From: a virus
Length of the DNA stretch: 64,000 nt
IMG/VR virus record: IMGVR_UViG_3300035682_000017
Coordinates: 17,704-81,703 of that record
Strand: one strand, 5' to 3'
In this document: positions 22,432 through 62,200 of the stretch, piece after piece
How the letters are laid out: every line of letters starts with the position of its first letter
How positions within the stretch are numbered: position 1 is the stretch's first letter
The notes under the pieces: model-generated
What the model was told of the DNA's origin: nothing
What the model saw: only the letters and a program-made list of their open reading frames with translations
Database searches by the model: none
Translations under genes and position numbers: made by a program

Positions 22432-22459
22432 ACAGGTTTAATTTGTATTTTTGGTGGTA

Positions 22460-22478
22460 AATTAGTATATTATTAGAT
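22460..22478 (+). promoter_or_regulatory. Putative late promoter (TATATTA 22466-22472), 6 nt before ATG
   Basis: Follows terminators and precedes a new operon. Same core motif. Confidence 0.55.
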
Positions 22479-22955: not shown

Positions 22956-22957
22956 GA

Positions 22958-23629
22958 ATGACAACAATCGGTGAATGTGTATCAAGACTTCGTAGTAAAA
23001 TAAAAGCAAGAACAGAAGATGCTTTTGTTACAGACCGCTATCTCTATAGTGTATTCATTAGTTATGCTAAAGCTTTAATTAGAAGACAGGACAATGAAAA
23101 TAAAATAATGAGATATGATTCATTATTTGAACTTTTACCAATGGTTGATTTAATTGAAGTTGATAAAGCAGAAGCTAATTGTGCTGGTATTAAAACTGGA
23201 TGCAAAATAATGCGTACTAAAAATAAACTACCAAAAGTATTTCAAGGAAGCTTAGGTCCTATTTTTAGAAGTGTTGGACCTATTGATGGTTCAGATACAT
23301 TTCAACAAATTAATTCTGCCATCTATGTTGCAATGACAAGCTCAACTAATTTTAAATATAACAAGACTCACTACTTTTGGTATAGAAATGGTCATTTATA
23401 TTTTCCAGATATTAAATGGGTTGCTGTTCAAATTGAAGGAATGTTTGAAGAACCTGTAGATAAGTTTTGCAATCTAAATGATGTTGATTGTACAAACATG
23501 CAAGAGAAAGAATTAAATCTTCCAGAGTATTTAATTGCAGAAGCAGAACAAATGGCTTCTCAAGATTTGCTTACACCGGTTAAAATACCTAGTGATACAT
23601 CTGATGATCAACAAAACATACATAGATAA
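22958..23629 (+). CDS. Tail ring protein
   Basis: MTTIGECVSR, IMRTKNKLP, KYNKTHYFWYRNGHLYFP and LPEYLIAE motifs; synteny. Confidence 0.7.
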   Translation: MTTIGECVSRLRSKIKARTEDAFVTDRYLYSVFISYAKALIRRQDNENKIMRYDSLFELLPMVDLIEVDKAEANCAGIKTGCKIMRTKNKLPKVFQGSLGPIFRSVGPIDGSDTFQQINSAIYVAMTSSTNFKYNKTHYFWYRNGHLYFPDIKWVAVQIEGMFEEPVDKFCNLNDVDCTNMQEKELNLPEYLIAEAEQMASQDLLTPVKIPSDTSDDQQNIHR

Positions 23630-34159: not shown

Positions 34160-34164
34160 TTACA

Positions 34165-36381: not shown

Positions 36382-36430
36382 ACAATTTTTAGTTAATTTT
36401 TAATTAATATATTTACAAAAACATTATTAC

Positions 36431-38290: not shown

Positions 38291-38312
38291 ATAACAATTA
38301 AAATATTATAAA

Positions 38313-40480: not shown

Positions 40481-43400
40481 ATGGCAAATGAAATAAATCC
40501 AGGTAAACCTAAAAAAAAAGTTGACTCTTCTGAATTAGCAGACAAACAAGCATCTATAGCAACCGGTAAAGAACTTGGAAAATTAAGAGAGGGTAATTTT
40601 AAAAATGCTATGCAAGGTGGTCAAGTAAGTGCTACTAAAGTTGGTGTTGATAGATTTATTACTTACGGAAGTAAGACTTTTGGAAAATTAGGATTTGATC
40701 CAAATAGAGATAATGCTGAATTTTATAACAACCGAACTTCTACTAGTGATGAAATGTGGAGAAGTGTTAAAGGTGCTTGGAATTTAGCAGGTGTTGGTTT
40801 TCAAGATAGTATTTTTCTAGGTGCAGTTTCTGATAAAAATTCTTCTCAAAAGTTTTCAGACATCATGGCTGATTACCAAGTTGATGAAAGAAGAGGTAAC
40901 ACTGCATTTTGGGGAAACACTATTACTTCTGCTGGATATACTGCTGGTATTATTGGAGCTATTGCTATTGAAGAAATTGGATTAGGTATTGCTACTGGAG
41001 GTTTAGGATTACTTGGTTCTGGTGGTATTATTGGAAGAGGTGTAGATAATATCTTTACAGGTTTAGGTAAAAGTAAACTTGCTAAAGTTGCTGGTGGTGG
41101 TAGAACTCATATTGAAATGATGGAAGGCCTTGCTGAAGTTGAAAGAGCAAGAGAAGCTTATGACAGTTATAGCAAGTTAAAAAAAGTTGGACTTAGTTTA
41201 GGTGAGTTTGGTAAAGACATTGCAAAAGGTTTAAATCCTATTGGTAATACTGCTGGGTTTTTAAAAGACCTAGAAAAAATGAATGATGTTAACGGCTTTG
41301 TTAAAATGGCAAATGGAGCTGGAGCTTTATACAGAGATGCTAGAAAGTTTACTATGACTCATAGTGAATCTAAACTAGAAGCTGAAATGAACTCAAAAGA
41401 ATTTTTTAATAAAGAACTTGATGCACTATATAAAAAGAATCCTGGTGCAGAAATATCCGAATTAGATCTTGAAGATTTAAAATCTAAAACTCAAAATGTT
41501 TTTGAAAAAACTTACAACGCCAACTTTGCTTTAATCTATGCAACAACTGCAATTGCTTTTGATAATGTTTTCCGTAACTTAAAGTTTAATCAGAATTGGT
41601 TAAAATCTGCAGAAGCTGGTAAAAACTCTATGAGAAATATAGGTAAGTCTTCGGCTGAATTTGTAACAGAAAACTTAGGAATTAATTTATCAAGAGGTTT
41701 AAAAAATTATGCTAAACGTACATTTTCTATTGGAGGATTAACTAGAGCCACTTTAGGAAATATTGCAGAAGGTTACCAGGAATTACAACAAGATGGTATT
41801 TCAACTAGTGCTGTTAGTTTTGCTAAAAGAAGTAAGGTAACAAAACAAACTGAAGGTAACTATTTTACAAATCTATACAATGAGTTAGCAGACAATTTTG
41901 ATTTTGTTGCTAATGGATTAGAGTATAAATTTATTCCTAAAACAGGAAGAGAATTAAGTACGTTTTTATCTGGTGCTTTTATGGGTGTAATTGCTTCTCC
42001 AGTTTCTATGGTTACGCAAGGTGCTCAAAAACTCACACTAGGAAAAGGATACAAATCTTTTTCTAAATCTTACAGAGAAGAACAAGCTAAATCAAATAGT
42101 AAAAATCAAGCAATTGCTAAAGTTCTTAACATGACCTTTAGAGAAAATCTTGATAAAGCTTACGATGTAGTTAACAAGCCTTTATTTACACAGATAGAAC
42201 TTCAAGAAAAAATTCTTGAGGCTGTTGAAAAAGGAGATACAAAAGCATTAGAAGATTTAAAAGATGCTACTTTTGCTGTGCAAGCAAACATGTTGTTAGA
42301 AACAAATGCAGATGAGGATTTTGCTGAACATTTAGATCAAGCTGCTTCAAAACTTAATGATTCAGAATTAGCAGAATTTTTAGGAAGAACTAACATTGAT
42401 GCAGAGAACTCTTCTAAAGTGCGTAAGGTTTTAAAAGATAAGGCAACTACTCTTAAAAAATTAAGAGCTGTTAAAAATGAAATTGATGCTAATGTAGTTT
42501 CTCCAATTAATCCAAATCTTTTAAATAAGAAGGATCCAGAGTATGCTCAAAAATATCACACATACCAGGCGTTTCAATCATTGAAAAAAGAGTTGTTATA
42601 TTCTCATGCTGCTATTTTGCAAAATGTAAATAGAACAGAAGGAATTAGAAGTAAACTTTTAGATAACTCAAAAAATATAAATTTTAGTTCATTTGAAGTA
42701 GAAGCGTTATTAAGTAGTGCTGATTTAAAATCACAAGTTGAGTTATTAAAAACTGAAATAGAATCAGTTAAATCTATTGGTTCTAGTAGACCTGAATCTA
42801 AAAAAGAATTAGAAGTTTTAGAAAAAAAACTTGTGGCTTATACAGAGTATCAAAAAGCATATGAGAAATTAAAAACAACTAAGGATTCAAATTCGGAAGA
42901 ATATGCAGATAGTGTAGATGCTGTACAAGAAGCTTTTCAAAATGTTGCTAAAGCATATAATGAAAGAACTACAAATAGATTCTTAGAAGTTGAAGGTATG
43001 TCTACAGACATTGTTGATTACTTAACTTTAGGTGAAGAAAGAGATGCTTTACAACAACATGTAAACCTTTTAACAAATAAAGATTACGCTTTCAATTTTA
43101 TTACAGAAGCTGAAAAACAAAATAAAAAAGCTTTAGCAAATCTTCAAAATCATATTGAAGATTCATTAAATGAATTTGATAAAAGAAAAGCTGCTAATAC
43201 CATGATGAAAATATTATCTGAAAAAGGAATAATATTTGACATGAATGAAATTGATGACTTATTTGAAAAAGGAATAATGCCATCAAAAATTTATGATATA
43301 GCAAAAAATAGTTTTGCTAATTCAAAACAAGTAGCAGAAGCACAAACCATTATTAGTTCTATTTATAAAAACCTTACAGGTAAAAGTATTTTAAATGATA

Positions 43401-46400
43401 AATCTAAAATAACAAGAGCTGGTTCTCAAAGAGCTGACAATGATACTAGAACTGTTAAAAATATCATTAAAGAATATGGTCTTAAAATGGATGAAGACAT
43501 TGATTTGTCTACTCCAGCTGGTAAAAGAATTATTAAAAAAGTTCTAAATTCAAATAAGTTAAGAGCAACAGATGTTGAAATATTAAATGAACTTCTTGAA
43601 AAAGGTGGTATAATTAAATTTGTTACTAATGCTGAATTGCCAATTACTTTTGAGAAAGGTGTTACAACTATTGATTTAAGATTTGCTGGAGCTGATTACA
43701 AAGGAACCACTTTATCTTTTGAAGGATTATTTACAACAGCATTACTTCAGGATAAAGTTGCTAGAAGAATTACAACTGATTCTGAATTTGCAGGTGAGGT
43801 AACGCAGTTAATGCAACAAACTAAACAATCACTCATAGATAAAGATCAAAGTGCACCAGCAGCTTTCTTTACGGATCCTGTGTTGTTTCTAGTTGAAGCT
43901 ATGAACAATAGAGCTTTGCAACGTGAAATGCAATCTATTAAAGATGACACACAAGTTTCAGAAAAAAGTATTTGGGCTTCCATGGCTGCGTTAATCAAAC
44001 GTATAATTAAAAGCACTTTAGCAAATGATACTCTACTTGAGAGAGCAGTTTACTTAACTAAGACCGCAACTTCAGATGGAGAACTTATTAAAGTTGAGGC
44101 AAAAAATGAAGAGGAATCTGCTGTAGAAACTGAACAAGAAGTTCAACAAGAAGAACCTACAACTGAAACTGAACTTGGTTTTGAAACAGATCCTGTTCTT
44201 GATTTAGAAAATAGAATTGATCAACTTAAAGTTGAATTGGCAGTATATGAAAATGAATTACGTAAAGTAAATAAACTTACTTCATTTAGAAAGTACTCCC
44301 AGCTTCAAAAGAAAATAGCTGGTTTAAATATAATGATTAATGATTTATCTGTTGAATTAAATGATCTTGTACCTGCAGAAGTTGTTGATAAACCAAAACC
44401 ATTTTCTCCAGTTAATAGAGTAGCGGATGAAGATCAGTATGGAAATATTATTCTAAATGAGAATGCTCCATTAAATGCTTTTCCAAAAGACATACTTAAT
44501 GAACTTTCTAATATCTATGGTAAAGATGTTACTACTTTAAAAGATTATGAGGAAGAAGAATTAAGAAAACTTATATCTCAACATCCTTTAATTATTAAAA
44601 TATTGAAAGCTCACAATGATGATGTCTATTCAATAGCAGATGAGTATGCTATTCTTACTAGCAATGAACAGGCTATGGAAGAAGGCAAACTTCTTGCTGA
44701 AAAAAGAGCAGCTGCACGTGAAAAAAGTATTCAAGACAACAAAGAAGAAGCACGTAAAAATGCAACTTTACAAGAAGACATGACACCAAAAGATATACTT
44801 TGGTTTAAGTTTGAACAAGCAGGTTTGTCTACAGATAATTTAAGATTGTTAACTGACAAGCAAGCTGAAACTCTCTTTGTTAAAGTGCGTGCAAAAGAAC
44901 TTGATCTTAATGATGTATTTAAGTTTGTTGAAAAGAAAAAACTTTTAAAAGACCAAAGAGCTACTAAAAAGTTTCAAAAAGAATTAGACTTATTAATTAC
45001 TAATGAGCAAGAAGATTTAGATAAGCAAAAAGAAAAAGAAGAGGCTCTTCAAAAAATAATTGATGAAAACAGAAAATTATTATCAGGTAAAAACATTAGA
45101 AGACGTAAAAAGATTTCTGAAAATAGATCAAAAGTTGTAAAAACAAATGTTCCAAAATCACATATTTTATTTTATGAAACATACTTTCCAGAAGTTTTAC
45201 TTATTGAAGATGAAATTAAATTTATTGAATTTATAAACAATGTTATTAAAGCAAGAGTTAACAATGGTAGAGTAAAAGCTAAAGCTGCATCTTTTTCAAA
45301 AAACAAAAATGAAGCATTAAATCAACTTGTAGATTTATTTATTGAACTTGATCACGCTAAAGAATTATTTCCTACAGTTGCAAATACAATTAATAAACAA
45401 CTACGCGCATCTAATTTACCATATAGAATTACTATGACTCCTACTAATAAAGGTGAACAACTGGTTGGTAGTATGTATAAAATTAGACACGTAGGTGATA
45501 TTAAAAAAAGAATTTCTAAACCTAAAAGAATACTAGGAGTTAATGATATTTTTAACTATTCTCAAAAAAGAGAGTTTGTTAAAAGTTATTTACCTACAAA
45601 TCTTAATGGAGAAGCTGCAGTTGAATTAGCAGTTATTCAATGGTTTTTAAATGGTGGTCGCGTTAGTTCTGAATTTATAACTTCTCAAGTTGGTTCAGAT
45701 TCTTCAGAGTTAAAAGCTAAAAAATCATTAATTAGTGCTAATGGTAAAAATAGATTGGATACAATCTTAGATGATTATATAGATATTTTAGATGTTGACA
45801 TTACAGAAAATGTTGCAATTTCTTTGTTAAATGATTACAGCACCATTAAAGAAATGGTTGAAGGAATGTTTGATGCTATTAAAGCTAACATTGATTCTGA
45901 AGAAAATCAACAAGGTGGTTCTGAAGATGAAAATTGGAATAACTTTATTAATTCTGAAGAGGGATCTGATTTCTTAAAAGATATGTATGAAGATGCTAGT
46001 ACTTATGAAAAAGAAGAACTCAACTTACTTGAATTTTATGCAAGCCCTGAAGGTAAAAAATATACAGATGCCTACAATAAAAATGTAGAATCTTATTACA
46101 ATTCCACATTATTTCAAATTGAAATGGGTGCTTTTGAAGGAGATCCTAACACTTTAGAGGGTGCGGAAAGAGAAGCTTACATGACGGCTGTAAAAGAAAA
46201 TCGTTATGAAAACAAGTTAAACCAGGATGAGAATACTGATGATACTGAAGATGTTTCACAAAAACCAAAAAAGGAAACTGCTGAAACTAAAGATGCATTA
46301 ATTTTTGAAGAAAAATTAAATAAAGAATTTGATATTTTTTACAATAAAGTTTTAACTGAAAGTTCTGGGGATTTATTTAACAAGCCAAACTTTGTTTTTT

Positions 46401-46894
46401 ATAATACAGCTGTTGCCAAATTAGAAAAAGATTTTACACTTAAAAATTTAATTTTAACACTTGCTGCATTTAACCAGTTTGGAAGCATTACACCTGCTCA
46501 ACATCAAAAGTTTTCAAGTGAGATGGTGAATAAAATTAGTGAAATTTCTACTGCTAATTCAAAGGAAATCCTTATTATTAATAATAAGGCTTATGAATTA
46601 TTACCTGGATTGAATAACAAACAAGTTCAATTAAAAGAAATTGGATCTGATGAAATTATTCTTAAATCATTTGAAGAACTTCCATTAGTAGTTTCAAATG
46701 TAAATGTTTCTGGAGATAATGTTAAATCTAAAACTGCTGTTGATGTAGAAAAAGATGAAGAATTTGAACCTGTTAAAGATGCCCTGTTGAATGTTTTTGG
46801 TAACTTTAAAAAACTTTTTGAATCAGGTGAAATTCCTGATAATTTGAATGGTATCAAAGAAGAAATAATTAAAAACTTAAATAACTGTAAGTAA
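40481..46894 (+). CDS. Giant ejection protein with putative membrane-spanning segments (2137 aa)
   Basis: Gly-rich hydrophobic stretch AGYTAGIIGAIAIEEIGLGIATGGLGLLG, EGYQELQQ motif, long coiled coils, degenerate zincin-like domain. Directly upstream of RNAP. Confidence 0.7.
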   Translation: MANEINPGKPKKKVDSSELADKQASIATGKELGKLREGNFKNAMQGGQVSATKVGVDRFITYGSKTFGKLGFDPNRDNAEFYNNRTSTSDEMWRSVKGAWNLAGVGFQDSIFLGAVSDKNSSQKFSDIMADYQVDERRGNTAFWGNTITSAGYTAGIIGAIAIEEIGLGIATGGLGLLGSGGIIGRGVDNIFTGLGKSKLAKVAGGGRTHIEMMEGLAEVERAREAYDSYSKLKKVGLSLGEFGKDIAKGLNPIGNTAGFLKDLEKMNDVNGFVKMANGAGALYRDARKFTMTHSESKLEAEMNSKEFFNKELDALYKKNPGAEISELDLEDLKSKTQNVFEKTYNANFALIYATTAIAFDNVFRNLKFNQNWLKSAEAGKNSMRNIGKSSAEFVTENLGINLSRGLKNYAKRTFSIGGLTRATLGNIAEGYQELQQDGISTSAVSFAKRSKVTKQTEGNYFTNLYNELADNFDFVANGLEYKFIPKTGRELSTFLSGAFMGVIASPVSMVTQGAQKLTLGKGYKSFSKSYREEQAKSNSKNQAIAKVLNMTFRENLDKAYDVVNKPLFTQIELQEKILEAVEKGDTKALEDLKDATFAVQANMLLETNADEDFAEHLDQAASKLNDSELAEFLGRTNIDAENSSKVRKVLKDKATTLKKLRAVKNEIDANVVSPINPNLLNKKDPEYAQKYHTYQAFQSLKKELLYSHAAILQNVNRTEGIRSKLLDNSKNINFSSFEVEALLSSADLKSQVELLKTEIESVKSIGSSRPESKKELEVLEKKLVAYTEYQKAYEKLKTTKDSNSEEYADSVDAVQEAFQNVAKAYNERTTNRFLEVEGMSTDIVDYLTLGEERDALQQHVNLLTNKDYAFNFITEAEKQNKKALANLQNHIEDSLNEFDKRKAANTMMKILSEKGIIFDMNEIDDLFEKGIMPSKIYDIAKNSFANSKQVAEAQTIISSIYKNLTGKSILNDKSKITRAGSQRADNDTRTVKNIIKEYGLKMDEDIDLSTPAGKRIIKKVLNSNKLRATDVEILNELLEKGGIIKFVTNAELPITFEKGVTTIDLRFAGADYKGTTLSFEGLFTTALLQDKVARRITTDSEFAGEVTQLMQQTKQSLIDKDQSAPAAFFTDPVLFLVEAMNNRALQREMQSIKDDTQVSEKSIWASMAALIKRIIKSTLANDTLLERAVYLTKTATSDGELIKVEAKNEEESAVETEQEVQQEEPTTETELGFETDPVLDLENRIDQLKVELAVYENELRKVNKLTSFRKYSQLQKKIAGLNIMINDLSVELNDLVPAEVVDKPKPFSPVNRVADEDQYGNIILNENAPLNAFPKDILNELSNIYGKDVTTLKDYEEEELRKLISQHPLIIKILKAHNDDVYSIADEYAILTSNEQAMEEGKLLAEKRAAAREKSIQDNKEEARKNATLQEDMTPKDILWFKFEQAGLSTDNLRLLTDKQAETLFVKVRAKELDLNDVFKFVEKKKLLKDQRATKKFQKELDLLITNEQEDLDKQKEKEEALQKIIDENRKLLSGKNIRRRKKISENRSKVVKTNVPKSHILFYETYFPEVLLIEDEIKFIEFINNVIKARVNNGRVKAKAASFSKNKNEALNQLVDLFIELDHAKELFPTVANTINKQLRASNLPYRITMTPTNKGEQLVGSMYKIRHVGDIKKRISKPKRILGVNDIFNYSQKREFVKSYLPTNLNGEAAVELAVIQWFLNGGRVSSEFITSQVGSDSSELKAKKSLISANGKNRLDTILDDYIDILDVDITENVAISLLNDYSTIKEMVEGMFDAIKANIDSEENQQGGSEDENWNNFINSEEGSDFLKDMYEDASTYEKEELNLLEFYASPEGKKYTDAYNKNVESYYNSTLFQIEMGAFEGDPNTLEGAEREAYMTAVKENRYENKLNQDENTDDTEDVSQKPKKETAETKDALIFEEKLNKEFDIFYNKVLTESSGDLFNKPNFVFYNTAVAKLEKDFTLKNLILTLAAFNQFGSITPAQHQKFSSEMVNKISEISTANSKEILIINNKAYELLPGLNNKQVQLKEIGSDEIILKSFEELPLVVSNVNVSGDNVKSKTAVDVEKDEEFEPVKDALLNVFGNFKKLFESGEIPDNLNGIKEEIIKNLNNCK

Positions 46895-46895
46895 C

Positions 46896-49800
46896 ATGAA
46901 AATTTGCATTACTCCCAATTCTATTAAATTATTCTACGTTTATTTTGAAAGCATAGCTCCTAATTTTAAATTAGATAAAAGCACTTTACCAGAAACATTA
47001 AAACTGTTTTATGATAAAGCAATGGATGATTTTTCAAGTAGTTCTCAAAATAAAAAAGAATTAACTGAATTGGTACTACAACATTTAAGCATTTTGCCAA
47101 AAGTTTTACAATCAGAACTTGTTCTAACTTCAAATAGAGATTTGGTAAAAAATGTAAATAATTTACAATTAGAAATTGAATCTGGTATTTTAGAAGGTAG
47201 TGGAAAATTAATTGATGTAATTAATAATATAAACTCAATGATTGGCAATGGTCCAATCATTCCTACAGTGTCACAAAATGATGAAGATGATTATAGATTT
47301 GATGCTATATCATTTGAGTTTAGTAAAACTAATAATCAAGACACTGAAGTATCTTCTTTAAATTCTTTTAAGGATAACATTAAAAGTGAAAATCAAACTT
47401 TGACTACTAATGTTACGATAAACATTGTAAAATCTAACAATGCTAAAAATTATAAATTTAAAGCATTCTTATTTAAAGATGTAGAGTCTTTAGTTTCTGG
47501 TGAGTTAGATAAAAACTTTTTACCAAATGATTTTGTTATGCTTGTTGTTGATGCTAATAACAACATAGTAAAGTTTGATAATGCTGGCGTTGAATCTGAA
47601 AAAGGAATTGTTCCTATTTATTGGACAAAAGTACTAGGTACTGAATTTTCATTTAAAGCAAACAACTTGGCTTTAATCTTCTCACAAAAATATAAAATAT
47701 CAATTAATGAGGCAGAGAAAATTGTTGCTAGTAAATTAAAAGAGCATTTATCTAAAATTGAATATATTAAAACCAATCTTGAAAAAGGAAATGAGGTAAC
47801 TATTCCAATTGATATAAACAATAGTTCAGTAGGGTTCATTGAAAAGTCTTTTGTTGAAAGATTCCCATTGTCTAATATGACAAACCTTGGTGAAGTTAAA
47901 GTTGTACTTAAACAAGATTCAAAAAGAAGAAGTGCTTTAATTATTCCTGAAAAAGGTAATGAGTCTTTTCCAATTTCTGGAACTGAATTAGGACCAATGT
48001 TAACAGAAGAATTTTCTGAAGTTCTTTTTTCACTTGCGTTTGCTCCAAACCTTCTTTATAAAAATTCAAACGGAAAAGTTTTTTCAAGTGTACTTGGTAT
48101 AAGTGAAAGGAAAGAAAGATTAAGCACTTTACTTAAAGGGGTTTTAATTTCTTCTGTTGCAATTAAAAGTGAAAATCCAAATGAAAGACCTGTTATTAAA
48201 AATCAAGTTATTTTTGGTAACTATTCTTTTTCATATACGTATGATACCAAAAACAATGAATATACTTTTGACAATGGTGTTAAAATTGAACAAGTAAAAA
48301 ATTTATTCAATGAATTTTTAAAAGAAGATGACATCATTTTAACTAAACTTGATCCATCTAATCCTAAAATTTCTTCTAAGTTAAAAGAAAATAGAGCTTC
48401 TGCAAATGCAGGTGATTTCTTTATTGAAAATGACTCTGTTTATTTTAAAACAAAAAAACTTGTAAATCTTGGTATACCTACAGGTGTTGTTAAAGCTGGA
48501 GTTGATTCACCAGTTATTCGTGTACCAGTTTCATCAGAAATATCTGAATCCGGACAGAAAGTTATTGTTTTTGATTCTTACAGTTTGAGTGATTTTGTTA
48601 AAACTTTTGGAACAACAAACTTGATTCCAAATAAAAACAATGAACTTGTAGCTAACTATCCTTATTTAACTTTTGGTAACCCAATGGTTAAGTTAGAAGA
48701 AAACAATACTGAAGAAGATGAAACTTTATTTCAGTCACTAGCTGATACAGTTAGACCTACTGGTTCAAGTGAACTTCAGGAAGCTGCTCTAAAGTGGTTT
48801 CAAAATCATCCATTAAGCAAATTAATTTCATTAAATATTTCAGATCAAGTTAGTGCAAAAGGTCCAAACTTTGTTGCTAACTTTTTAAACAATGCTATTA
48901 CTTTGTACAAAGGCTCTTTAAATACTGATATATTTCACGAGTCTTTTCACGCATTTACACAATCTGTTTTATCACCAAAAGAATTAGAAGCATTATATTC
49001 TAAAATTAAAAGTACGCCTGGTTATTTTACAGTTGTTGTTCATGGTGTAAAAAAAGAATTGCGTTTTGATAAAGCAAGTAATCTTGAAATTGAAGAGTAC
49101 CTTGCTGAACAATTTAGAATGTATGCTCAAAACAGAACTACTTCTTCTAAATTAAGTGTACAAGTAAAAGAATTTTTTGATAGACTTTTAACACTCATCA
49201 AATCTATTTTTGGTGATATGCGTATTACTGATGCTGTAAATTTGAATAGGTCTAGCAAGTTGGCTTCTAAAACATTTGAGGCTTTATTTTCTGGAAATAT
49301 AAACCTTTCAAATTTTAGACAATCAAGTACAGATGCTTTATGGAAATCAAGTGAAATTGATACAGACTTTTCAATGGAAGAAATCCATGTAATTATGGAT
49401 TCTATGAAATCTTTGTTTAATGAGTTTGTTACATACGGTGTTAACTCAAACAACAAACCTTTATTAAACTTGATGATGCAATTATCTGAAGTTAATGAGG
49501 AGTTGGAACCAGAAAAATATAATAAGATTAAAGAAGAACTTTCTTTAAAACAAAATTCAATTAGAGATAAATATACTGCACGCGGTTTATTTTCTGTACA
49601 AACAAATTCAGAGTTGTTTAAAACAGGATTAACTTATATTAAAAACAACCTTATCCAGCAAAGAAATTTATTAGATAAAAGATATTCTGAAAATCCAAAC
49701 AACTTGAATTTTAAATTTGCAGCAGATGTATTAAACAAAGCTGTATCTAATTTTGGAGATGAGCAAGAAGCATTTAATGAAGTTCCTACTGAAAAAGGAT

Positions 49801-52800
49801 ACGCAACTATTTCTGCATTATTTTTAAATAACTATTCCAACTTAAATTTAAAAACTGTTTCTAAAGAAATTGAAACAAGTCAAAATAATTTAGATGGTGA
49901 ACAAGAATTACAAGAAAGAAATGATGAAGACTTGGCGTTAAATGAAGATCCAACATTGGACTTTAACAAAAATGGTAATGATGAAAGCATCCAGGACTTA
50001 ATGGATAATCATACTAAAGAGCTTCTTTCAAATGTAACTAAGCATACTAAAAATGGTAAGGGTGTTCCAATGTTAAATCAACTTGGATTTAAAAAAGCAT
50101 TGCCATTAGAAAACATGATTGCCAAAACTGCAAAGTTATTAGCAAATACAATTAGTCGTATTGACATGTATAATAAGCTTAAAGAAGCTGCTTTAAAAGA
50201 TGGTGAGTTTAAAGAATTGCTTTTTAAACTTGGAGATCCTTCTTCTGCAAATACAACTTTGAGTGAGCAAAAACAATGGCTTGCATTTTGGCAGGCAATG
50301 AATAAAGCTGATATTATTCTTAGACAATTTGTAATTGAAAAGAATGATGTAATAAATGGTAAAGAATCTTCTACAGAGTTATTAATGTATTCTGGTAGAA
50401 CTGTTGCAGACTCTCTTTATATTGGTAGAGAATGGGCTGCTAACTTTAATGAGTTATTAGAGTTAAGTCCTTATGCAAAAGAAGATGAGAATGGAAAAAA
50501 ATACATTGATGTAAAAATGTTTTTTGAAGAATTCCAACCTGAACTTCCTGTCTACAGTGTAAAAGATCCAGCCTCAACTTTAGAACCATATCTTACACAT
50601 GCTGAATACATCCGTTCAGTAAACAAAAAAGAATATGAAAGCTCAAGAGCATTAAAAGCATATTCAGAACCATTTGAATTTTTAAATGCTTTTGGAATTG
50701 ATCTAGTAGATGATTCAGCTGTAAGAGATATTATTAGAAAAGGTTCTAAAAACTTTAAGTTTGAACCTTTATTTTTATCATACATTGTTGATTCTTTAAA
50801 AAACAAAATTGAACAAAATGATGGTAAGTTATACAGGATGGATGAAATCTTTAGCGCATTTAACTTTAAAAATAAAGATGGTGTTTACATTCAACAACCA
50901 GCAACATATACAGTTAAAAATGCTTTACAAGAATTGCATTCTCAATTTTCAAATGACAATGTATCCTTCATGGCTACAACTTCATACAATGAAAAGAAAT
51001 CTGAAAAAGCATTAAACTCATCTTTAACTGTTGAATTAAATGCTTTAAAGAAAGCAAACACGTATGAAGAGTTAATTGTTATGCCAGGAATGAGAAAGTT
51101 TGACATAGATTTAAACCCTTTTGTTGGTGGCAATAGAGCATTTGTTCAATTATTTAATTTGGATAACGCTAATCCTATTATTAGAGGTACAAAAAATAAA
51201 AACATTGAATTTAAACTTGAAGATTTAACTGGTTCAAAAGTTAAATACAATTTAAAAGTAACCAATGATGGTGAAACTGTTACTTCTGAAAATGAAAAAG
51301 GTGTTTCTTCTATGGCTTCTGATGAAAATACAAAATTCATTACAGATTTTTATACCACTTTAGAAGGTATACAAGAATTACCAAGGATGGAAGCTAAGTC
51401 TTCTTCATTTGCAATGTTTAATACACAATTTGTAGATGAGCAATTACGTGGTAATAAAACTGGAGATAAAAATAGAAAATTGATTTTTGAAAAAAATGAA
51501 ATCAATCAGATATTTTCTAAAGATTATACTGGTGATTTTTTATATCAACAGTTTAAAGGGCATTTAAGTGCAGAGATGATTCGTATCCAAAGAATAAATA
51601 AACTTGAATCTGAAATTTTAAATTCAGATGAGGAATTTATTTTTGATTTTGATTATTTGAATAGAGCAAAAGACTTTATGATTTTTCAAAATTTATTAAG
51701 CAAGGATGTTAAAAACAAATTAAAAAAATTAAACTTAGATCAACTTTCAGTTCTTCAAGTAGAATCTTTATTTTCTAAAGAACTTATAGCTGATATTGAA
51801 AAAGATCTAGTTGTTTACTTTAAATCAAAATCTAAAAACATATCTAAAAATTTCAACAACATTCCAATTAGCAAATCTATTTTGGAAGAGTATACAATGT
51901 TGAATCAAGATGAAGTTGTTTTATCTGAAGAGGATGCAAAACAAGTTATGTTTGATACATTTACAACTAACAACTTTATAAACAATTTAAACTTTGTTAC
52001 TTTGTTTATTGGTGACATAGGTTTGTTTAAAGTAACAGATGAAGATTTTCATAAACGTAATGCAGGTATCATTTCTAGTGGTAAAATTTCTGCAGTAGAT
52101 GAAGCGTTTTTAGATTTTGTTAATGGTGCTACTTTTAACAACTATGGTTTTGCTAAAAAGTTTAATGGTGAAGCAAAAGATAAAAGTTTTTATTCCTATG
52201 ACGGTAAACTTAATACTGCAGTATTAGAAGAATCTAAAGCAGATTCTAAATACATTGATACATTTAGAGAAATTATAGGAAGCAAAGCTGAATCATATTT
52301 AGGTATGGAAGAAGCGGATGGTCAAGGTTGGATTACTTTTGATTCATATAGATTGTTAAATTTATCTTATAATGAATGGTCTGATGAACAAGAGGCACTT
52401 TACCAAAAGATGTTATCTGGTGAGAACTATTCTCAAGATGAAATTTTAGCAACTTTTCCTGTTAGAAAGTTTCAATACTTTGGTCACGTTACTAATGATT
52501 TAGGTGTGTCTGCATCTTTATCTACAACAGCATTCCACAAGTATTCATTAATGCCATTAATACCTGATTTAATTAAAGGAACTAAACTTGAAAAATTAAA
52601 TGAGAAATTAATGCGTGAACATATTGATTACGCGGTAATGAAGTCTGGTTCTAAAGTGTCTAGTTTATCAAGAATAACAAGAGTAAAAAAGGCTGATGGT
52701 ACTTATGAATTAAAAAAAGAACTTGACTTATTTTACAATAAAGATAGAGAGGTAATAGATGAAAAACCATTTATCAAAAATATTATTGATGCTACTCATT

Positions 52801-55800
52801 TAAAAAATGTTGTGTTTTTAGGAGAAGGTTTTAAAGGAAAAATTCCTTTACCAACTCAAATGCGTAAAATGATTCTTCATGGTTTAATGGAGAATGGTGT
52901 TCCAGTTGATTATAAAGGTGCACCAGAAGAATGGAATGCATTAAGTGAAAAAGAAAAACTTAAAAATAAATACTACCAATGGTATCAAAAATACGCTTCT
53001 ACTATTAAAAAATTGAGAGATGTATTTAAAAATGAACTTTTGGATGACATCTCTATGAAATGGGATGAAAAAAAGAAAATGTATACAGGTGATACAACTG
53101 CTATTGTTAATTACATTAAAAATGAATTAGAAAAAAATGACTTTTTACCACATGAAATAGATGGTATTGCTGATGTAAATGGTCACTTAATTGATGATTT
53201 ATCTTTTGATTTAAACAGTCAAAAAATTGAAAGCATTTTAACTGCTCTTGTTGATAAACGCCTGCGTAAATTTAAAGTAAATGGTGAAGCAATGGTTCAG
53301 GTATCTGGTGCAATGTTTGAATCAAATGGAGGTCTTGGAACATTTGCTAAACCTACGGATGAACAAATGGTACAATTCAATGGTACAAATGATTTAAAGT
53401 TTTATCCAATAGAAAAAGATGCTGAAGGCAATGTTATCATTAGCGCAATGGAAGTTAAAATTTCATTGCAAGGAGATTTTAAAAATTTAATTTATTTAAA
53501 ACATCCAGACAAAAATGTTATTGCTGTTAAAAATGCTGATGGTAAAATTGACATGGAGGCTTCTCGTTTAAGATTAAATGAGGCAATTAAAGACCGTGCT
53601 TGGAATAATAAACATAAGAATCTTTTACAAATGCCAGGTGTTCGTATTCCAACACAAGGGCCAAATGCATTAGATGTTGCTATTGTTGCTGAATTTTTAC
53701 CTGAATGGGCTGGACCAATAGTTATTCTTCCTTCAGAAATGGTTATTAAAACTGGTGGGGATTATGATATTGATAAAATGTTCTTCATGCTTCCAAGTAT
53801 ACTGCGTAACAAAAAAGATGGCGCATCCTTATATGAGTATGAAGAATTAACTACTTCTTATGAAGAACTTGATGCTGAAAAAACGGTTTTAACAAAAAAT
53901 ATAAAATCTACATCTGAAAATATTGACAACCTGTATAAAGAAAAATCAAAATTATATTTAACAAATAAAGATATTTCTGAAGAGGTTAAAGAAGAGTTTG
54001 AAGCTGAAAATTTAAAAATTGGAAAAGCAAAAAAACAACTTGCATTTTTAAAAGAAAATTTACAAAAAATTAAAACGGTTCCTTTAAATGAAACTAAACG
54101 TAAAAGATTAATTGAAGAAAATGAACTTCAAAGTATAACACTTGAAGAATTAATTATTTCAATTAGAAATGAAAGAGAAAAAAGACAAGCAGAATTATTA
54201 AGTTTTGATACAGGGGTTTCTAGTTATAAATCTGCAATGGATTCATTTGTTTTACAAATTAAACTTGAAGAAGATGTATTGCAAAAACTACTTGATAGAA
54301 AAGAACAAATAGTTTTATCAATGAAACAAAGTTCTACCAAAGGTTTGGAAAATGAACTTTTAAGATTGATGGTAGATAAAATTTTAGATACTAATAACAT
54401 AAAAGATTTACTTACACCAAATGGTACAGAAGAAGCTAAACCTCTTTCAAAAAAATTAGAAAGAGTTTTAAATAAATCATTTAACAAGTATGAAAAAATA
54501 CATGATGAGATTACAGATCCTTTAAAAATATCACCAACAACTCTATTTGATTATGAATACAACTTGCAAAAACAACAAGAAAATTCAGTTGGTAAAGATG
54601 CATTAGGTATTGCTGCAGTTGTATCTACATTTTATGCATTGTTTACAACATTTGATTCTAAGTTAAATGGTCCAACTATTGAAGCATTAGACTCATTTAA
54701 AAAAGCACTTTCTTCAAGTGATCCAAAAGGTATTGAAAAGTTTAGAGGATATGCTATTAAATTATCTCACAACTATGTTGAAAATACATTACAAGGCAAT
54801 AAGATAAAACAAGTTGCATTAGGAAAAAGATATAGTTCTGAAACAGATAAGAAATTAATTGCGGATACTATTTCACAATTGATTAATGGATTTGTGGATG
54901 TTGCTAAAGATGCTTGGGTGTTTAACATTCAGGGAAATAAAGAAAATTCACCAACTTTATTGTTCATGATAATGGCTGGCGTTCCTTTAGAAGATGCTGT
55001 TTATTTATCATCAAACCCTTTAGTTTTAGAATACAATAAAATTAAAAAAGAAATGCAGGGTGTATATTCTAAAGTGAATTACGAACAAGGTGATCCAATT
55101 GTTGAAAATGGTTTTAAGTTAAATGAGTTAGCTGGAAAGGCTCTTTTAGATAAGTATCCTACACTATTTAAAAAATACAAAGGATTAACTCCACATGCAA
55201 TAAACAACATAACTGAAGGAGATTTTTCTAATGACGCACTTTACAATAGAATTGGTAAGACTCCAACTGAAGAAGATATTATATATTTTGCACACTATGT
55301 TGAAATAGAATCTATCTCTGGTGACTTAACAAAGTTTCAACAAGCTAATAAGCACGATACAACAAAAGTTTCAAACATCACTGATGCTGAAAATAACATT
55401 GTTAAAAATGAAAACTTTTTTAGATATAGAAGTGCAATTCCAAGAGAATGGGAAGACTTGTTTAAAGAAAATCCAATTGGTGTATTTAATGCTAATGATT
55501 TTATTGTACAAGTATTTAAACAGTTCTTTAAAATTAAAAACAACCCTGTTGTAAATCAACTTGCAATTGAATTTTCTAAATCTGAAAATGTTAAAAAGAT
55601 TGTTGGTAAAGCAGATACTTCAAGAAATGCATTTAAAAATGATTTCATTTGGTTCTTATATCAAAATGCTGTTTATAATAGTAATAAACTTTCTTATTTT
55701 AATGAAGAGGGTAATTCTGTAACAAACACTTTTATTGAAGATGATTCTATTAATAAAGCAATTGAACTTAATTTTGAAGAAGACAGTGATAATATAAATA

Positions 55801-58800
55801 TTACTTACAGTCCATCAAAAATTAGCCAGGAGTTAGCAATGACTACTGATAATTTAACTAGATCCGTATTTATAAATAAAGGCAAACCTGATATTTTAGA
55901 ATATGCTAAATACAAGTACTTGTTTACAGAGTATAGTGCAATGTTTTCCAATGTTAGTGAAGAAGAATTAAGAAGCAAATATTACTTCTTGGCTTCTAAT
56001 AAATTTACTAAAACTCATTTAATAAAAGCTATTGTATTATATGATTTAAAAAGTCCAAGAAGTTTGTTTAATTCTTATGTAGGTGCAGGATCAATAATTA
56101 AAAAATTCATACGCAAGCATCCTGATTTAAAAAACTATTCATTTATTTCAGATTTAAAATTTGATGATGATTATGATTCTTTCAAATCAAATATTTATTT
56201 ACCAAAAAACACTGGTAAAAAATTAATGCAAACTTATCTTGAAAATATAAATGAGTTGCGTAATCATACAGCACCGGAAGTTGCTGAATTTTTTAAAGGT
56301 TTTGACAACTATTTAGTTATGCAGTCAGGTTTAAATGCGGCTTCTAAATATTTTATGGGCCCATTGATTTCAAAAGGATATGTTTATAACACAGCCGCAT
56401 CTCAATTAGATTTTACATCTATGGAAGATTTGTTTAAAGTTTCTTATGATCAGTTTAAAGAATTTGGAAATAGTTTTTTAAGCTATGAATATAAGGATGG
56501 TAATAAGATTGTAACAGATTCTGTTAAATTAGGTTTACTAGAACAGTTTTCTGAATCAATTTTTAATGTTGTAAATAAAAATGGTTGGAGGCAACGAGGA
56601 AGAGGTGTTAATTATGTTCAAGATAAACCATTGAATTATGGTGGAGTTAAAACTGTTAAAGAAACTCCTTTGACATATAGCAATGTAAGTTTCTTTAATA
56701 ACATGTCTGATATAAATATTAGTGATTACGACTTTATTTTTAATCCGGCTTCAATTTTTGAATCTGAATTTGAAAGTATTGATGATGTTGTTGAGATGTT
56801 AAAACCTTTTGCTGATGATAAAGTAGCATTTCCAAATTATAAAATAATTGTTCCAGAAGAAACTTTATTTACACAAAAAGAATTTGATGATTTCCTTTTA
56901 GAGTATTTTGGTATTGACAATACAGGAATGAGTCCAAATGCAATTCCAAAATCTAAAATTGGCAGGTCTTCTAATATGACCATTTCAACTGTTCCTTCTA
57001 AAGTGAAATACGAATGGTATTCAGATGAAATAATCTCTTCAAATTCTACAAAAGCAATTGCCTTTGAAAGTAAACAAGCACCAAAATATGCAAGTAAACA
57101 TAAAAATTACATTGATGCATTAGAAGGTTTTGTAAACAAAGATTTCAATGCTGATGATGCTGTTTGGATATTTGGTGCATCTTTAAGAAGTGAAGCATAT
57201 TCAGATAAATCTAAATCAGAATACGAACAGGTATTGACTGATGATTTTAACAATAAATATGTTGGTGAGATTGATAAAGCAATTGCTTCAGGGGTAACTA
57301 AATTTTTAACAGATGCTAAGAATACAGGTATTTCTTTAAGAGCTGGAAACCATTTACTTGCACAAGGTTTTAAAAAGGTTGTTACATACGGAGCTAACTT
57401 TGAAAAGTATTACTCTTATTATAAATCTTTATCAGATGTTGATTCACAATATTTTGATCCAAGTAATTCTGAAATTTCTATAAGTGATCTTAAAATTGAC
57501 ATTCACATAAATGCAATTTCTAAAATACTTACTAAAAAGTTTTTTGAATTATCAGAAGAACAAGTTGCTAATAATGGTGCAAGTTTTGTAGAGGGTATTG
57601 TTAAAGCGTATTTTTCTGATAAACTTGGGGAAAAATTAAATTTTGCTAGAAATTTATACATGTCTAAAAATTCTCCATTAAAAATTGGAACTTCACCTGC
57701 AGCTGTGTATTTAGAAAAATATTTAATGGGAAGTTTAATTCCAGCATTAGATAAAAAGTTTAATGTAGCGACTGATCAACCATCTGCTAGTGTTAAAGAA
57801 AGAAAAGTAAAAGTTGTTGCTGACGGTATTAAAGTTATAGATAATGCAATTACACAAGAAGAAGAGTTAGAATTATTTACAGCTATAAAACCTTTTTTAG
57901 AATCACAAGGTGTTCAATCAAACATAGGAAAAAATGCTCCTATTATGATAGGCTTAGGACTTAGATGGGATTACACATCAAACAATCCAGGAAAAACTCC
58001 TGTTGAATTAGGTGAAACTATAAACAATAGTGAATATCAAAAGAATAAATATAGATACTATCTTGTTTCAGCTGACGGTCAACCTTTAGGTGATATTTCA
58101 CCAAGAATAAAGGAGTTAATGACTAAAGCTACTGGTATTGATGCTACCAACTATGATGGTGCAATTATAAATATATACCCTAAAAATTCTTTTATATCTG
58201 CACATAATGATGTAGATGAATCAGTTACTGCAAAACAGTATCCTGTATTAGTTGTAAATATAGGGGGTGAGGGTAGTTTAAGTGTTGAAGGTTCTAAAAG
58301 CCAAACTGCTAAAAAAGGTTATTCTGAAAAAGAATATACAGATACTCCTTTATCTACAGGTTCTGCTTATATTTTTGGAGAAGGTGGTAAAAATAGAGAT
58401 GTATTCCATAGAACTTTACCGTCAGCTGTTAAAGGTACACTGCCTGAATTAAACATTAAAGGTAAAATTATTCCTGCTAATTCATATAGAATGACGATAA
58501 CATTAAGAAGAGTCATGCCTTTAGAACCAGGAATGCTTACAGTACCAGCTAAAGCTACTACTCAATCATCTACTAGTAGAAAAACTTATTCTGGTAAAAT
58601 AACTGAATTAAAAGATAAGCAAGTATTTGTATTTGGAAGCAATCCTTTAGGTATTAATGGTAATCCTGCTAAAGGTACAGGAGGTGCAGCATTAGTTGCT
58701 TACAATATTGCTGGTGTAAAACAAGGTGAAAAAATGGACAACATTCTTTCTGATTCAGGAAAAGCATATGGTATAACTACTGTTACAGCTCCTGGAAAAC

Positions 58801-59225: not shown

Positions 59226-62200
59226 TGGTTTGTATTAATAGATCACATCAAGATTTTTTAAATCTACAACAAGTTACTGGTTTAAATCCAGATGTTTTAA
59301 ATGCAATGATTTCAATATGGATGGAAGAGAATAAAACAGATTCTTTTCCATCTCTTGATGAACTAGGTTTAGAACAAAAACAGGATGATTTTCCAGAGTT
59401 ATTTGAAAAACCTGATGGGCTTTTTGATTCAAATGAAAAGGATGATTTCTTTGGTGTAACAAAAACATGGGAACACGATACAACAAATGATGTTACAAAA
59501 AAGTTACCTAAAAATGTAATTGGATACTTGAAAGGTAAACCTTTAAACTTTAAGGCTGGTCAAAAAGAAAAGTTTGATATACTTGTTAAAGTGGTTGGAT
59601 ACGAAGAAGCATTTATTGATTATGTTCAACAAAAAAATCAAGTTAGAAATCCTGAAACAGTACTTAGAAAAATATTGTATGATTCTAATGTTGAGTTTGA
59701 AGGTACTTCTGATACAATGTTTCAAAGAATTCCAGAAGATGAAGTTGTAGATGATATAACAGCAGTTGATCAAATAAAAACAATCATTGAATCAGAAAAT
59801 AAATCAAAGGCTGTTACAGCAATGACAAAACTTTCTGATCAACTTGGTATTAACTATGAAGTTATTACTCAAGAAGAGTTTGAAGACTTGTATCCTAATC
59901 AACCAAAAACAGCTGGGTTTTATAAAAAGGGAAAAGTTTATTTTATTGATGGTTTATTTAATTATGATACAGTTCTTCATGAATTTTCACATCCAATAAT
60001 AAAATCTCTTTCAAAAGATAATCCTGTATTGTTTGAAACACTTTACAGCAACTTATTAAAATCTCCAGAAGGATCTGAAATTTTTGATTATGTTTCAAAA
60101 TACTATGATGAATTAACTCCAAATAGCAATTTGTTTATGGAAGAAGTTTTGGTACAAGCAATGGAAAGATTAAATTCAAAACCAGAGTTAAAAGAAACTT
60201 CATTTTTTAAAGACTTGCTTTTTCAAATAAAACAATTTTTAAGAAGCATTTTTGGTAAAAAAATAAATGTTTCTAAACTGGATAACAATACCACTCTTCA
60301 GGATTTTTTAAACATGTTGAATCAAGGAGAACAGTTTGTTCTTAACATGGATTTTTTAAATGCGAATGATGTTGTAATGTTTCAAAGAAAATATGCTGAA
60401 GAAATTGAAAGTGTTATTCAGAAAAATGCAATGGAAACAACTCAACAAGTAATTGATGAGTTTTATTCTTTAGTTCAAAAACAAGTTGGTAACTTAACAA
60501 AAGAAAATTCAATTTTCAACACACTTAAATCTGAACTAAGTGATGATTTTAATGAAGGTGTTTTACAAATTATTCGTAAAAACTTAAATGAGCTTTCTAC
60601 TAGAGGTACTCGCCCAGTAAAAACATTAGATAAGTTAAATCCTCTTACAGAAATTGATGTTTTAAGACACAAAGTTGAAATGTTTGTTACAACATTGGCA
60701 TATGTAGATGAGGTGTTTAAAAAATTAAATACTAAAGCAGATACTCTTTCAGCAAATAATTTAAGCAAAGCTGATTTCAAAGACTTGCTTGCATTACACA
60801 TGTATGTTGAAAACTGGACAAAGTTTTATGATGATGCATTAGATGGATATTTTAATCAATACAATTTAGAAGATCCAATTTACAAGTTGTTTACAAATAG
60901 TAGAAAGAAAGTTTCTGATCTTTCTTCTAAAGTGAATTCAATTACTACTGATGTTGTATTTGATGAGTTTTATGATCACGTTAAAAAAATAAATCAGCCT
61001 GTTGAAGATGAAGCTCTAAGTGAACTTAATGAGTTAAAAAATGCAGGTCTGTTTTCAGAATATGAAAAAAGATATAAAGAGTGGTATGGATTAACTACAT
61101 CTGAAAATACAGAATTGTTGGCTTTAGACAGAAGAGCTGATAAGGAATCATTAGAAAGATACTGGGAATTAAAAAGTAAAAGTTTTAATTCGCAATCTAT
61201 TTCCAAAGACCAGTTAAAAGCAGTAGCTGGAAACATACTTGGTGATGCTGATAGCATTTTGTTGTTGATGACTGGTTATTCCAATTCATCTGATGATATT
61301 GTTGGAGGGTTTCATTCATACATATCTCAATTTTTTAATGAGATAACTGGTAATGCAAATGCTAAACAAACTGAACTATTAAAAAAAGTTAAAGACCAAT
61401 TAAAAAATTCATCATTTAAAACAAAAATGCATGGTGAAGGAGGATTAGGATTGGCTATTGGTAAAAGAGATTTTATTTTAAATAGCAGAAATCCTTTATC
61501 TGAAAAAGAAAGAGAAGAACTATTATTGTTAAGCACTTTACAGAATAGAGATTCTGAAGAACAGCAAAGGTATCAATATCTAAGTCTTGCTAAACGTGGT
61601 TATGAAGAGTCTGAAGAATATGTTTTTGCAAGTAACTTTAAACACTACAGGTCAGACAGAGATCGTCTTAGAAATGACATTGAAGTAGCAAGATTAGAGT
61701 ACAATTTGAATCCAACTCCAGAAAACAAAAAGAAATTCAATTTAATTGTTAAAGAATTTAAAAATTTTGAAAATGATTATATGAATAAAGATGGACTAGA
61801 TGAGGTTTATCAATTTGATGGATTTATGGATGGTCCAATTGGGGAAATGGGTAAAGAAAAAGTAGATGAGATTTTTGAAAAAATGAGAATCCTTACTTCA
61901 AATACAATGTCAGATCCTGCAGATTTTAGTATTGATGAAGAGTTAAGTTCATTATGGGTTGAATTAAGACAGTTGTACAGCATGTATGACCTAAACGGTA
62001 ATGAGAAAACAGATAGTTACACAGATGCTTCTGGAAACTTAATTGAAACCTATGACAAATCAATTGCTGAAGTTTTAAATCAATACAAAGAATCAACGCG
62101 TGATTTCTATGAGTATAGTGATATTCCAATGAAGTTTGAAAACTCATTGAATTTATTTACTGAAGGATTGTTTGCATCTAATTTATCTGATGCTGAAATT

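Follow-up and report, generated by a model that had tools for sequence, protein, structure and literature searches.

Facing terminal cysteines at the junctions of three giant cargo proteins in crAss-like phages

Crassviruses are the most abundant phages of the human gut, and the movement of megadalton protein, including a giant RNA polymerase, from their capsid into the cell is an open problem. A 64,000-nucleotide stretch of viral DNA (positions 17,704 to 81,703 of IMG/VR virus record IMGVR_UViG_3300035682_000017; hereafter ‘the window’, in whose numbering its features are given) encodes three consecutive giant proteins, here called A, B and C, whose few cysteines are found mainly at the ends that face one another across the two gene junctions. 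The question raised by this locus is why the cysteines stand there, and whether they might link these proteins head to tail. The contig is 81.7 kb long and stops inside the last gene; the window makes up its right-hand 64 kb.

Cysteines at the facing ends of three giant proteins

A preliminary description of this DNA had noted that a 2137-residue protein ends KNLNNCK and contains no other cysteine, that the RNA polymerase encoded next begins MKICITP, ends NNNKNCK and contains two cysteines only, and that the giant protein after it begins MVCINRS. The open reading frames and cysteine positions proved exact, and the relevant features are as follows (A, B and C being the first, middle and last members of the putative chain):

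40481..46894 (+), protein A, 2137 residues, first member; sole cysteine at 2136 and none N-terminal; ends ...KNLNNCK, then stop
46886..46888 (+), TGT codon of A Cys2136, followed by one residue (Lys) and the stop
46896..59225 (+), protein B, 4109 residues, virion RNA polymerase by motif and homology (see below), middle member; cysteines only at 4 and 4108; begins MKICITPN, ends ...NNNKNCK, then stop
46905..46907 (+), TGC codon of B Cys4
59217..59219 (+), TGT codon of B Cys4108
59225..64000 (+), protein C, at least 1591 residues, cut by the contig end, last member; begins MVCINRSH; Cys3 and an internal Cys1162
59231..59233 (+), TGT codon of C Cys3

Four of the five cysteines among the 7,837 residues of A, B and C thus lie at the four facing ends (P = 8.7e-11 for at least four of five falling within 4 residues of the four junction-facing ends). 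The background against which they stand is cysteine-poor: the seven-frame cargo block from 29543 onward contains 7 cysteines in 11,450 residues, versus 142 in 9,378 residues of the other 23 open reading frames of the window (binomial P = 1.5e-64). Chance is excluded as the cause of the terminal placement. The C-terminus of C lies beyond the contig end and so outside the data; in its closest relatives (L014 and L015, of 2053 and 2024 residues) Cys3 is the sole cysteine, with none C-terminal.

The label of RNA polymerase that the preliminary description gave to B is upheld by a DxDxD metal-binding motif of two-barrel RNA polymerases, which lies in a stretch aligned to the DFDID region of a Kolpuevirus protein:

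53760..53774 (+), DYDID (B residues 2289-2293)

A DxDGD motif was considered first and is absent from B, DxDxD being present instead; DFDxD is described as the catalytic motif in a preprint on phage phi14:2 (10.1101/2020.03.07.982082). B is homologous to that Kolpuevirus protein, a gp50-like ‘putative RNA polymerase’ (phmmer 6e-24, over three collinear stretches), and to the B proteins of loci L077 and L061. We conclude from this motif and homology that B is the virion RNA polymerase. Protein A is homologous to the protein upstream of the RNA polymerase in 11 of the 15 other proteins compared (phmmer 1e-161 to 3e-21) and has no Pfam, PHROG or PDB sequence match.

The + strand holds all large genes of the window, in the order portal, cysteine-rich tail genes, a 1646-residue virion structural protein, four cysteine-poor open reading frames, and then A, B and C. 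The three giant genes sit at the end of the structural genes, past the portal, tail and cargo genes, which is the position by which the RNA-polymerase block of Crassvirales is recognized. Their terminal-cysteine pattern is identical to that of the block in two cultured phages. In phi14:2, the sole cysteine of gp67 (1797 residues) is its last residue, the RNA polymerase gp66 (2180 residues) has cysteines at 3 and 2179 only, and the sole cysteine of gp65 (1421 residues) is at position 3. In crAss001, gp47 has a sole cysteine at 2339 of 2341 residues, gp50 has cysteines at 5, 1334 and 2404 of 2412 residues, and gp49 has a sole cysteine at 5; the Kolpuevirus pattern is as in crAss001. The proteins of phi14:2 and crAss001 are virion proteins by mass spectrometry (g065-g067 of phi14:2 according to its record notes; gp47, gp49 and gp50 of crAss001 according to PMC10172136); the phage of the window is uncultured. 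The block likewise resembles that of phi14:2 and crAss001 in placing a giant DxDxD polymerase between two giant proteins, one of which bears a zincin-like HExxH motif. It differs in the far greater size of B (4109 residues versus 2180 and 2412), and B also has an AlkB-like domain and an HExxH motif of its own.

We conclude that the window encodes, in A, B and C, the RNA-polymerase block of a crAss-like phage, which corresponds to gp67-gp66-gp65 of phi14:2 and gp47-gp50-gp49 of crAss001. The equivalence of A and C in particular to gp67 and gp65 is suggested by position, motifs and cysteine pattern. The Zincin-like protease domain reported for gp65 (Drobysheva preprint, 10.1101/2020.03.07.982082) has its HExxH at residue 245, and that of C is at 252; hhalign of C with gp65 gave a weak match (E = 0.06, 30 columns around HExxH). 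A and C showed no direct sequence link to crAss001 proteins.

The facing pairs in relatives, at breaks and at fusions

Scans of viral contigs with single sequences (the last 500 residues of A or the first 800 of B) found no relatives, and an alignment-based scan was needed. For the A-B junction, the search alignment covered the surroundings of the HExxH motif of B, and 61 loci were obtained. Identical loci were collapsed before counting, and loci with a cut protein start were dropped, leaving 47 distinct loci with a complete B N-terminus. Both facing cysteines are present in 45 of the 47 and neither in the remaining two (L155 and L156, where B lacks the head cysteine and the upstream protein the tail cysteine); no junction is one-sided. 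The count of 45 includes L121, whose upstream frame is cut and falls below the length filter of the script (script count 44). The head cysteine is at position 3-6, and the tail cysteine is followed by 0-3 residues in 42 of 44 rows and by 7 or 9 in the other two. Complete B proteins contain exactly two cysteines in 36 of 45 cases (104 cysteines per 167,750 residues overall), and complete proteins in the position of A exactly one in 35 of 40 (41 per 64,155 residues). A phmmer search of 16 A-type proteins against the B proteins of L155 and L156 gave no match, so that an A-B fusion at those two loci is neither supported nor dismissed.

At the B-C junction, a scan with the B tail gave 12 loci; in all 11 where the B homologue is present to its end, it has a cysteine in its last 8 residues and the next open reading frame has another at position 3-6. 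The larger tally comes from an alignment-based scan for the C head region, which gave 80 loci with C homologues of 23-56% identity, 78 of them with a complete start and 66 distinct. The head cysteine lies within the first 8 residues of C in 66 of 66 distinct relatives, and the upstream open reading frame has a cysteine within its last 8 residues in all 65 loci where there is such a frame. Cys3 is the sole invariant column of both alignments of the C head, which hold 63 sequences (alignment A4) and 64 sequences (alignment A5). Complete C homologues (1846-3086 residues) contain exactly one cysteine in 59 of 65 cases, and none of the 65 has a cysteine in its last 10 residues.

The row for locus L089 in the B-C tally is coincidental: the open reading frame just upstream of its C is a GIY-YIG homing endonuclease with a cysteine at -7, and its true chain partner, encoded one gene before that, has 396 residues, Cys 3 and a cysteine at -1. 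The endonuclease gene of the GIY-YIG/NUMOD3 type stands at 8289-8882 (+) of that locus, between two chain genes. Cysteine counts and conservation in homologues, which the preliminary description had named as a check on its proposal, bear out the terminal pattern at both junctions (facing pairs in 65/65 at B-C and 45/47 at A-B), and we conclude from these comparisons that the facing head-tail pair is a rule kept across the phage order.

The junction one gene further upstream served as a control, and there neither cysteine is found at 36 loci, one-sided cases are absent, and both are found at 3, which are loci with an extra middle protein. This result bears on an explanation at the level of nucleic acid, in which the TGT and TGC codons would be a nucleotide signal at gene junctions (for translational coupling, or as extra stops) and the cysteines a by-product. 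The two window junctions are indeed alike in DNA (AACTGTAAGTAAC-ATG and AATTGTAAATA-ATG), and the genes abut or overlap. Against such a signal, it is absent at all 36 of the non-chain control junctions, TGT and TGC are both used, the cysteine lies anywhere between 0 and 9 residues from the end, and the intergenic gap ranges from -13 to +303 nucleotides. In crAss001 and Kolpuevirus, moreover, gp47 is encoded on the opposite strand and keeps its lone C-terminal cysteine with no partner gene following on that strand. That arrangement rules out a signal confined to gene junctions, and we give the nucleotide explanation practically no weight. It also means that the order of a protein chain, if there is one, is not simply gene order; joining ‘in gene order’, as first proposed, holds in the window and is not general.

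The second line of evidence comes from phages in which the block is divided differently; the three proteins form a single fused polyprotein in some phages (10.1101/2020.03.07.982082). The polymerase of p-crAssphage, gp44, is annotated as fused to a further RNA polymerase subunit and has a head Cys3 and no tail cysteine. A Rudgehvirus RNA polymerase fusion protein of 4098 residues has the same layout, again with head Cys3 and no tail cysteine, and the zincin protein that precedes the fusion in both phages retains its tail cysteine. In phage cr60_1, gp27 (4494 residues) contains both HExxH and DxDxD motifs, has no head cysteine and has a tail cysteine at 4491, and the next protein, gp26, starts MTC (Cys3); we read gp27 as a probable fusion of the first two proteins of the block. 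Conversely, proteins inserted into the block, of 180-1364 residues, are always two-ended, with both a head and a tail cysteine (L005, L020, L032, L040, L089 and L111/L112/L114). As far as these sequences go, facing cysteine pairs are present exactly where the polypeptide is interrupted, and the terminal pair is gone at fused joins.

This behaviour also weighs on the idea that the ends bond with their own kind, tail to tail and head to head, so that A and C would each form homodimers and B would polymerize. Single surface cysteines often give symmetric dimers, the two tails of the window resemble each other, as do the two heads, and crAss001 provides a precedent in gp57, which dimerizes through disulfides (PMC10172136). 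Bonds of that kind, however, leave unexplained the joint gain and loss of head and tail cysteines (no one-sided junction among 47), the first protein never having a head cysteine nor the last a tail cysteine (0/65), and the removal of exactly the facing pair when neighbours fuse; the bond seen in cyanopodophage A4 (described below) is tail to head (PMC12002296). We regard like-with-like bonding as quite improbable.

Several further observations concern these divided and fused proteins. The extra middle chain protein of L111 (4054-8148, +; 1364 residues, with Cys 4 and a cysteine as its last residue) matches a PD-(D/E)XK nuclease domain (PF12705, 3.5e-5, 24.3 bits against a cut-off of 22), and it is possible that it is an injected nuclease riding in the chain. 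The giant proteins of cr60_1 (L160, NC_055891) contain 9-55 in-frame stops under table 11, so a stop codon must encode an amino acid in this phage. In p-crAssphage gp44 (L095, BK010471) an internal cysteine at residue 2220, in ...NSFNCPSYTF..., looks like the C-P-N motif at the head of separate C proteins and may, in this single case, mark an old joint; phmmer found no link of p-crAssphage gp44 or gp45 to crAss001 or Kolpuevirus proteins, and the fusion joint within gp44 is thus not placed.

Putative docking modules and disulfides, and competing explanations

Structure prediction suggests a small folded module at each side of the B-C junction:

59091..59222 (+), B tail module, about 45 residues, predicted as three short helices (AlphaFold2 on alignment A3), listed as ending two residues after Cys4108
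59225..59374 (+), C head module (residues 1-50), predicted as a short coil with Cys3 and two helices, 9-18 and 22-36 (AlphaFold2 on alignment A5)

In the 90-residue model of the B tail, the first 38 residues have predicted local distance difference test (pLDDT) values below 50 and the last 45 or so values of 69-90, with helices at 47-59, 68-73 and 76-87 and the cysteine at 89; a helix is thus predicted to end just before Cys4108. The C head module is predicted confidently (pLDDT 89-94 for residues 1-50) and is followed by a linker (residues 55-80) with values below 50. For the C head (150 residues, alignment A4) with the B tail (90 residues, alignment A3), complex prediction reached scores of 0.26 and 0.25, below the mark of 0.32, which is no answer and is used neither way. 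Within many genomes, each junction has its own tail and head motifs (for example ...NxLGC[KE] with MNC[AT]L... at one, ...[DE]FMxxC[FY]x with MxxCPNxNxPEW... at the other), and such junction-specific motifs fit cognate couplers.

We consider it probable that short docking modules at the protein ends, together with disulfides, join A, B and C head to tail in the virion. The preliminary description had proposed end modules of this kind, and that part of it gains strong comparative support (facing pairs at real breaks and their absence at fusions, two-ended inserts, junction-specific motifs, and the signature shared with phage A4); the docking, the bond itself and the time at which it forms are what we infer, as are the stoichiometric packaging, threading as one chain and release by reduction that the description had also proposed. 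In cultured phages the capsid holds these giant block proteins, and their ejection into the host is presumed to precede that of the DNA. Cargo of this kind is purged of cysteine, as other ejected phage proteins are, and the terminal cysteines would be deliberate exceptions. A and B would each bear a short helical tail module ending in cysteine, B and C would each bear a head module of the form M-x(1-4)-C, and each tail would dock onto the head of the next protein, after which the paired thiols may oxidise to a disulfide in the assembled particle. The result would be a linear thread, A-S-S-B-S-S-C, of about 8,300 residues (2137, 4109 and roughly 2,030, the size of C being judged from L014 and L015). 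With the cysteines within a few residues of the chain ends, the joint would add hardly any width to a single chain, so that the portal and tail channel could let it through, and the links would open in the reducing cytoplasm, freeing the polymerase. In crAss001 virions, disulfides are reported from tail and portal-vertex proteins, among them the gp57 dimer, the tail hubs and the rings (PMC10172136).

Proteins could also be docked without a covalent bond, the thiols sharing a metal ion or merely lining an interface. Acidic residues are common just before the tail cysteine (D/E-rich tails), B and C of this clade both carry a metal-binding HExxH, and assembly takes place in a reducing cytoplasm, all of which would suit a metal-bound or non-covalent joint. 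On the other hand, there is a single cysteine at each end with no conserved second cysteine or histidine adjoining it, and in phage A4 the same signature is a disulfide by cryo-electron microscopy (PMC12002296). We therefore regard such a joint as unlikely.

The metal-binding motifs themselves, both of them zincin-like and found one in B and one in C in the clade of the window, suggest another role for the cysteines:

48936..48950 (+), HExxH of B (residues 681-685); H, E and H invariant in the 3-sequence alignment A2
59978..59992 (+), HExxH of the putative C zincin-like domain (residues 252-256), conserved among C relatives

In matrix metalloproteinases, a pro-peptide cysteine caps the zinc and keeps the protease latent, and a terminal cysteine could by analogy cap the zinc of a zincin-like protease until ejection. 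Both window proteins with a head cysteine, B and C, carry HExxH, and elsewhere a zincin lies near the tail cysteine of the first protein (HExxH 2157 and Cys 2339 in crAss001; HExxH 1743 and Cys 1956 in p-crAssphage). Such a switch is nevertheless highly improbable. Head cysteines occur without HExxH in crAss001 gp50 and gp49, in the Kolpuevirus gp50-like and gp49-like proteins and in phi14:2 gp66; A of the window has a tail cysteine and no HExxH; four terminal cysteines stand against at most two zincins; and in the model the C head module is set off from the zincin by the low-confidence linker.

Two further roles were considered and rejected. Split intein halves are tens of residues long, with Cys1 and a C-terminal HN followed by Cys+1, and the 0-9 residues after the tail cysteine and 2-5 before the head cysteine leave no room for them, which dismisses trans-splicing. 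Lipidation was set aside on finding no signal peptide or lipobox context.

Returning to the disulfide-linked chain, several observations count against it. The cargo proteins are unresolved in the crAss001 reconstruction (PMC10172136). Between A and C and their proposed equivalents gp67 and gp65, phmmer finds nothing, leaving the 30-column hhalign match around HExxH. Many hosts are anaerobes with a reducing cytoplasm, which puts the time and place of oxidation in question; a Pfam scan of the 20 open reading frames left of the window, on an incomplete contig, found no phage thiol oxidase or thioredoxin. The window tails are alike (..NLNNCK and ..NKNCK), as are its heads (MKICITPN and MVCINRSH), so the window gives no sign of order-specific docking, and B might in principle link to itself. 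C of the window has its second cysteine at 1162, and some relatives have 1-3 internal cysteines. The 857-residue p-crAssphage gp47 (L095, BK010471, 1006-3579, +) has a sole cysteine at 856 with no head partner evident among the neighbouring proteins examined. Finally, a break divides the B frame of both L037 (1933-9974) and L081 (3-9768), with no cysteine pair there. These breaks look like frameshifts or assembly errors. The B pieces of L037 overlap, and those of L081 are about 170 nucleotides apart, after a K-rich run; in L023, whose B-tail and C-head sequences are identical to those of L037, the B frame is unbroken over the 3323 residues present.

If a covalent, reduction-sensitive thread is real, it would explain how exit order could be set, how neighbours are kept together during packaging, why cysteine is purged elsewhere in these proteins, and why gene fusions and splits are freely tolerated in the block. 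A broader version, which we offer tentatively and think somewhat doubtful, is that of a general coupling system, in which cognate tail-head pairs with one disulfide each would order a ‘train’ of ejected proteins, which gene fusion, gene splitting and plug-in wagons could make longer or shorter or arrange anew. A thread of more than 8,000 residues would then travel through the tail as a single polymer, to come apart in the reducing host cytoplasm, and the same device in phage A4, an unrelated cyanophage, would mean that it is widespread among podophages with large ejected cargo. The idea of a chain is directly testable in two cultured phages (phi14:2 and crAss001), and crAss001 virions have been analysed by mass spectrometry both reduced and unreduced (PMC10172136).

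Neighbouring genes and comparison with known systems

The remaining features of the window lie upstream of the three giant genes or within the C-terminal part of B:

31-2076 (+), portal, PHROG match (phrog_6547)
24555-29495 (+), virion structural protein, 1646 residues, PHROG match (phrog_37948)
29543..40469 (+), four upstream cargo-like open reading frames of 1538, 738, 619 and 718 residues, with 0, 0, 2 and 0 cysteines, forming a cysteine-poor background
58038..58508 (+), AlkB-like 2OG-Fe(II) oxygenase domain of B (residues 3715-3871), Pfam PF13532, 1.4e-10
58587-59036 (+), phrog_2072 domain of B (residues 3898-4047), after the AlkB-like domain

Residues 3891-4059 of B, which cover the phrog_2072 domain, have tblastn matches in 91 phage records, mostly of Vibrio, Aeromonas and Bacteroides phages and including crassvirus polymerase genes. 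Other searches gave little. Pfam has no family for C; PHROGs has none for A, C or the four upstream cargo frames; PDB sequence searches with A, B and C found no match; a profile of alignment A1 against PDB gave chance-level rows only (best E = 0.005, to a designed protein); and a Foldseek search of the C model against PDB returned nothing at E <= 0.001 and weak metallopeptidase rows only. DNA nearly identical to 46000-60000 was not found in the phage collection.

The 619-residue cargo-like frame (36431-38290, +) has two cysteines only, at 126 and 132. Its counterparts of 914-1021 residues in eight relatives (L099, L100, L102, L103, L113, L118, L129 and L152) have a cysteine pair at 128/134 (127/133 in L102 and 128/131 in L129), and a counterpart group of 855-865 residues has zero cysteines. 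The family thus shows a conserved C-x5-C (C-x2-C in L129) in a protein otherwise free of cysteine. The tail-gene block (10204-24552, +) is cysteine-rich, with 2-5% in many open reading frames; the proteins starting at 12038, 13525 and 17794 begin M-x-C, and those at 10204, 10864 and 22479 have a cysteine near the C-terminus. By analogy with the crAss001 tail, these cysteines may form inter-subunit disulfides. To the left of the window, a 95-residue open reading frame (L161, G000:C1, 6604-6891, +) matches a Tad2-like Thoeris anti-defence domain (PF11195, 3.4e-22), and near it are a SegE-type GIY-YIG endonuclease (5718-6134) and a WDGH-domain protein (6893-7513).

Among known systems, modular polyketide synthases offer a likeness. 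Their docking domains are short helical C- and N-terminal modules that set the order of consecutive giant proteins, as the end modules proposed here would; they are non-covalent and cytoplasmic. In N4-like phages (Schitoviridae), the giant virion RNA polymerase and ejection proteins are nearly free of cysteine (0.00075% versus 0.865% for proteomes), and an earlier suggestion cited in the same paper is that the lack reflects passage through the periplasm (PMC11445570). The N4-like phages show an absence of cysteine only, whereas here a few cysteines are retained at defined ends.

In the passages covered, the collection of literature searched yielded no statement on terminal cysteines of crassvirus cargo. 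The words ‘cysteine’ and ‘disulfide’ are absent from the available text of the phi14:2 preprint (10.1101/2020.03.07.982082), and the disulfide passages seen in PMC10172136 all concern tail or vertex proteins, none of them the terminal cysteines of cargo.

The closest precedent is cyanopodophage A4, in which cryo-electron microscopy shows the C-terminal helix of gp27 docked in gp26 and a disulfide between the two terminal cysteines (PMC12002296). In the record of phage A-4L (KF356198), ORF27 (1717 residues) has a sole cysteine at 1715 and ORF26 (1114 residues) a sole cysteine at 5. The likeness lies in adjacent genes for large proteins with a sole or near-sole cysteine at the C-terminal end of the upstream protein and at position 3-6 of the downstream one. 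It is a likeness of mechanism and not of family; at E <= 0.01, phmmer matched none of the three giant proteins to A-4L ORF26-29. Phage A4 (Saffermanviridae) differs in having one link, two proteins and no polymerase, whereas the pattern described here has a two-ended middle protein, three to five members and a rule that is order-wide. The A4 bond is in print as a structural detail of one phage (PMC12002296), and a crassvirus chain, if it is real, would generalise that single observation into a rule. Already known, then, is a single head-to-tail disulfide between ejection proteins; new is the putative multi-link chain, with the polymerase as its two-ended middle, proteins that plug into it, and the rule that links splits and fusions to the gain and loss of facing cysteines.

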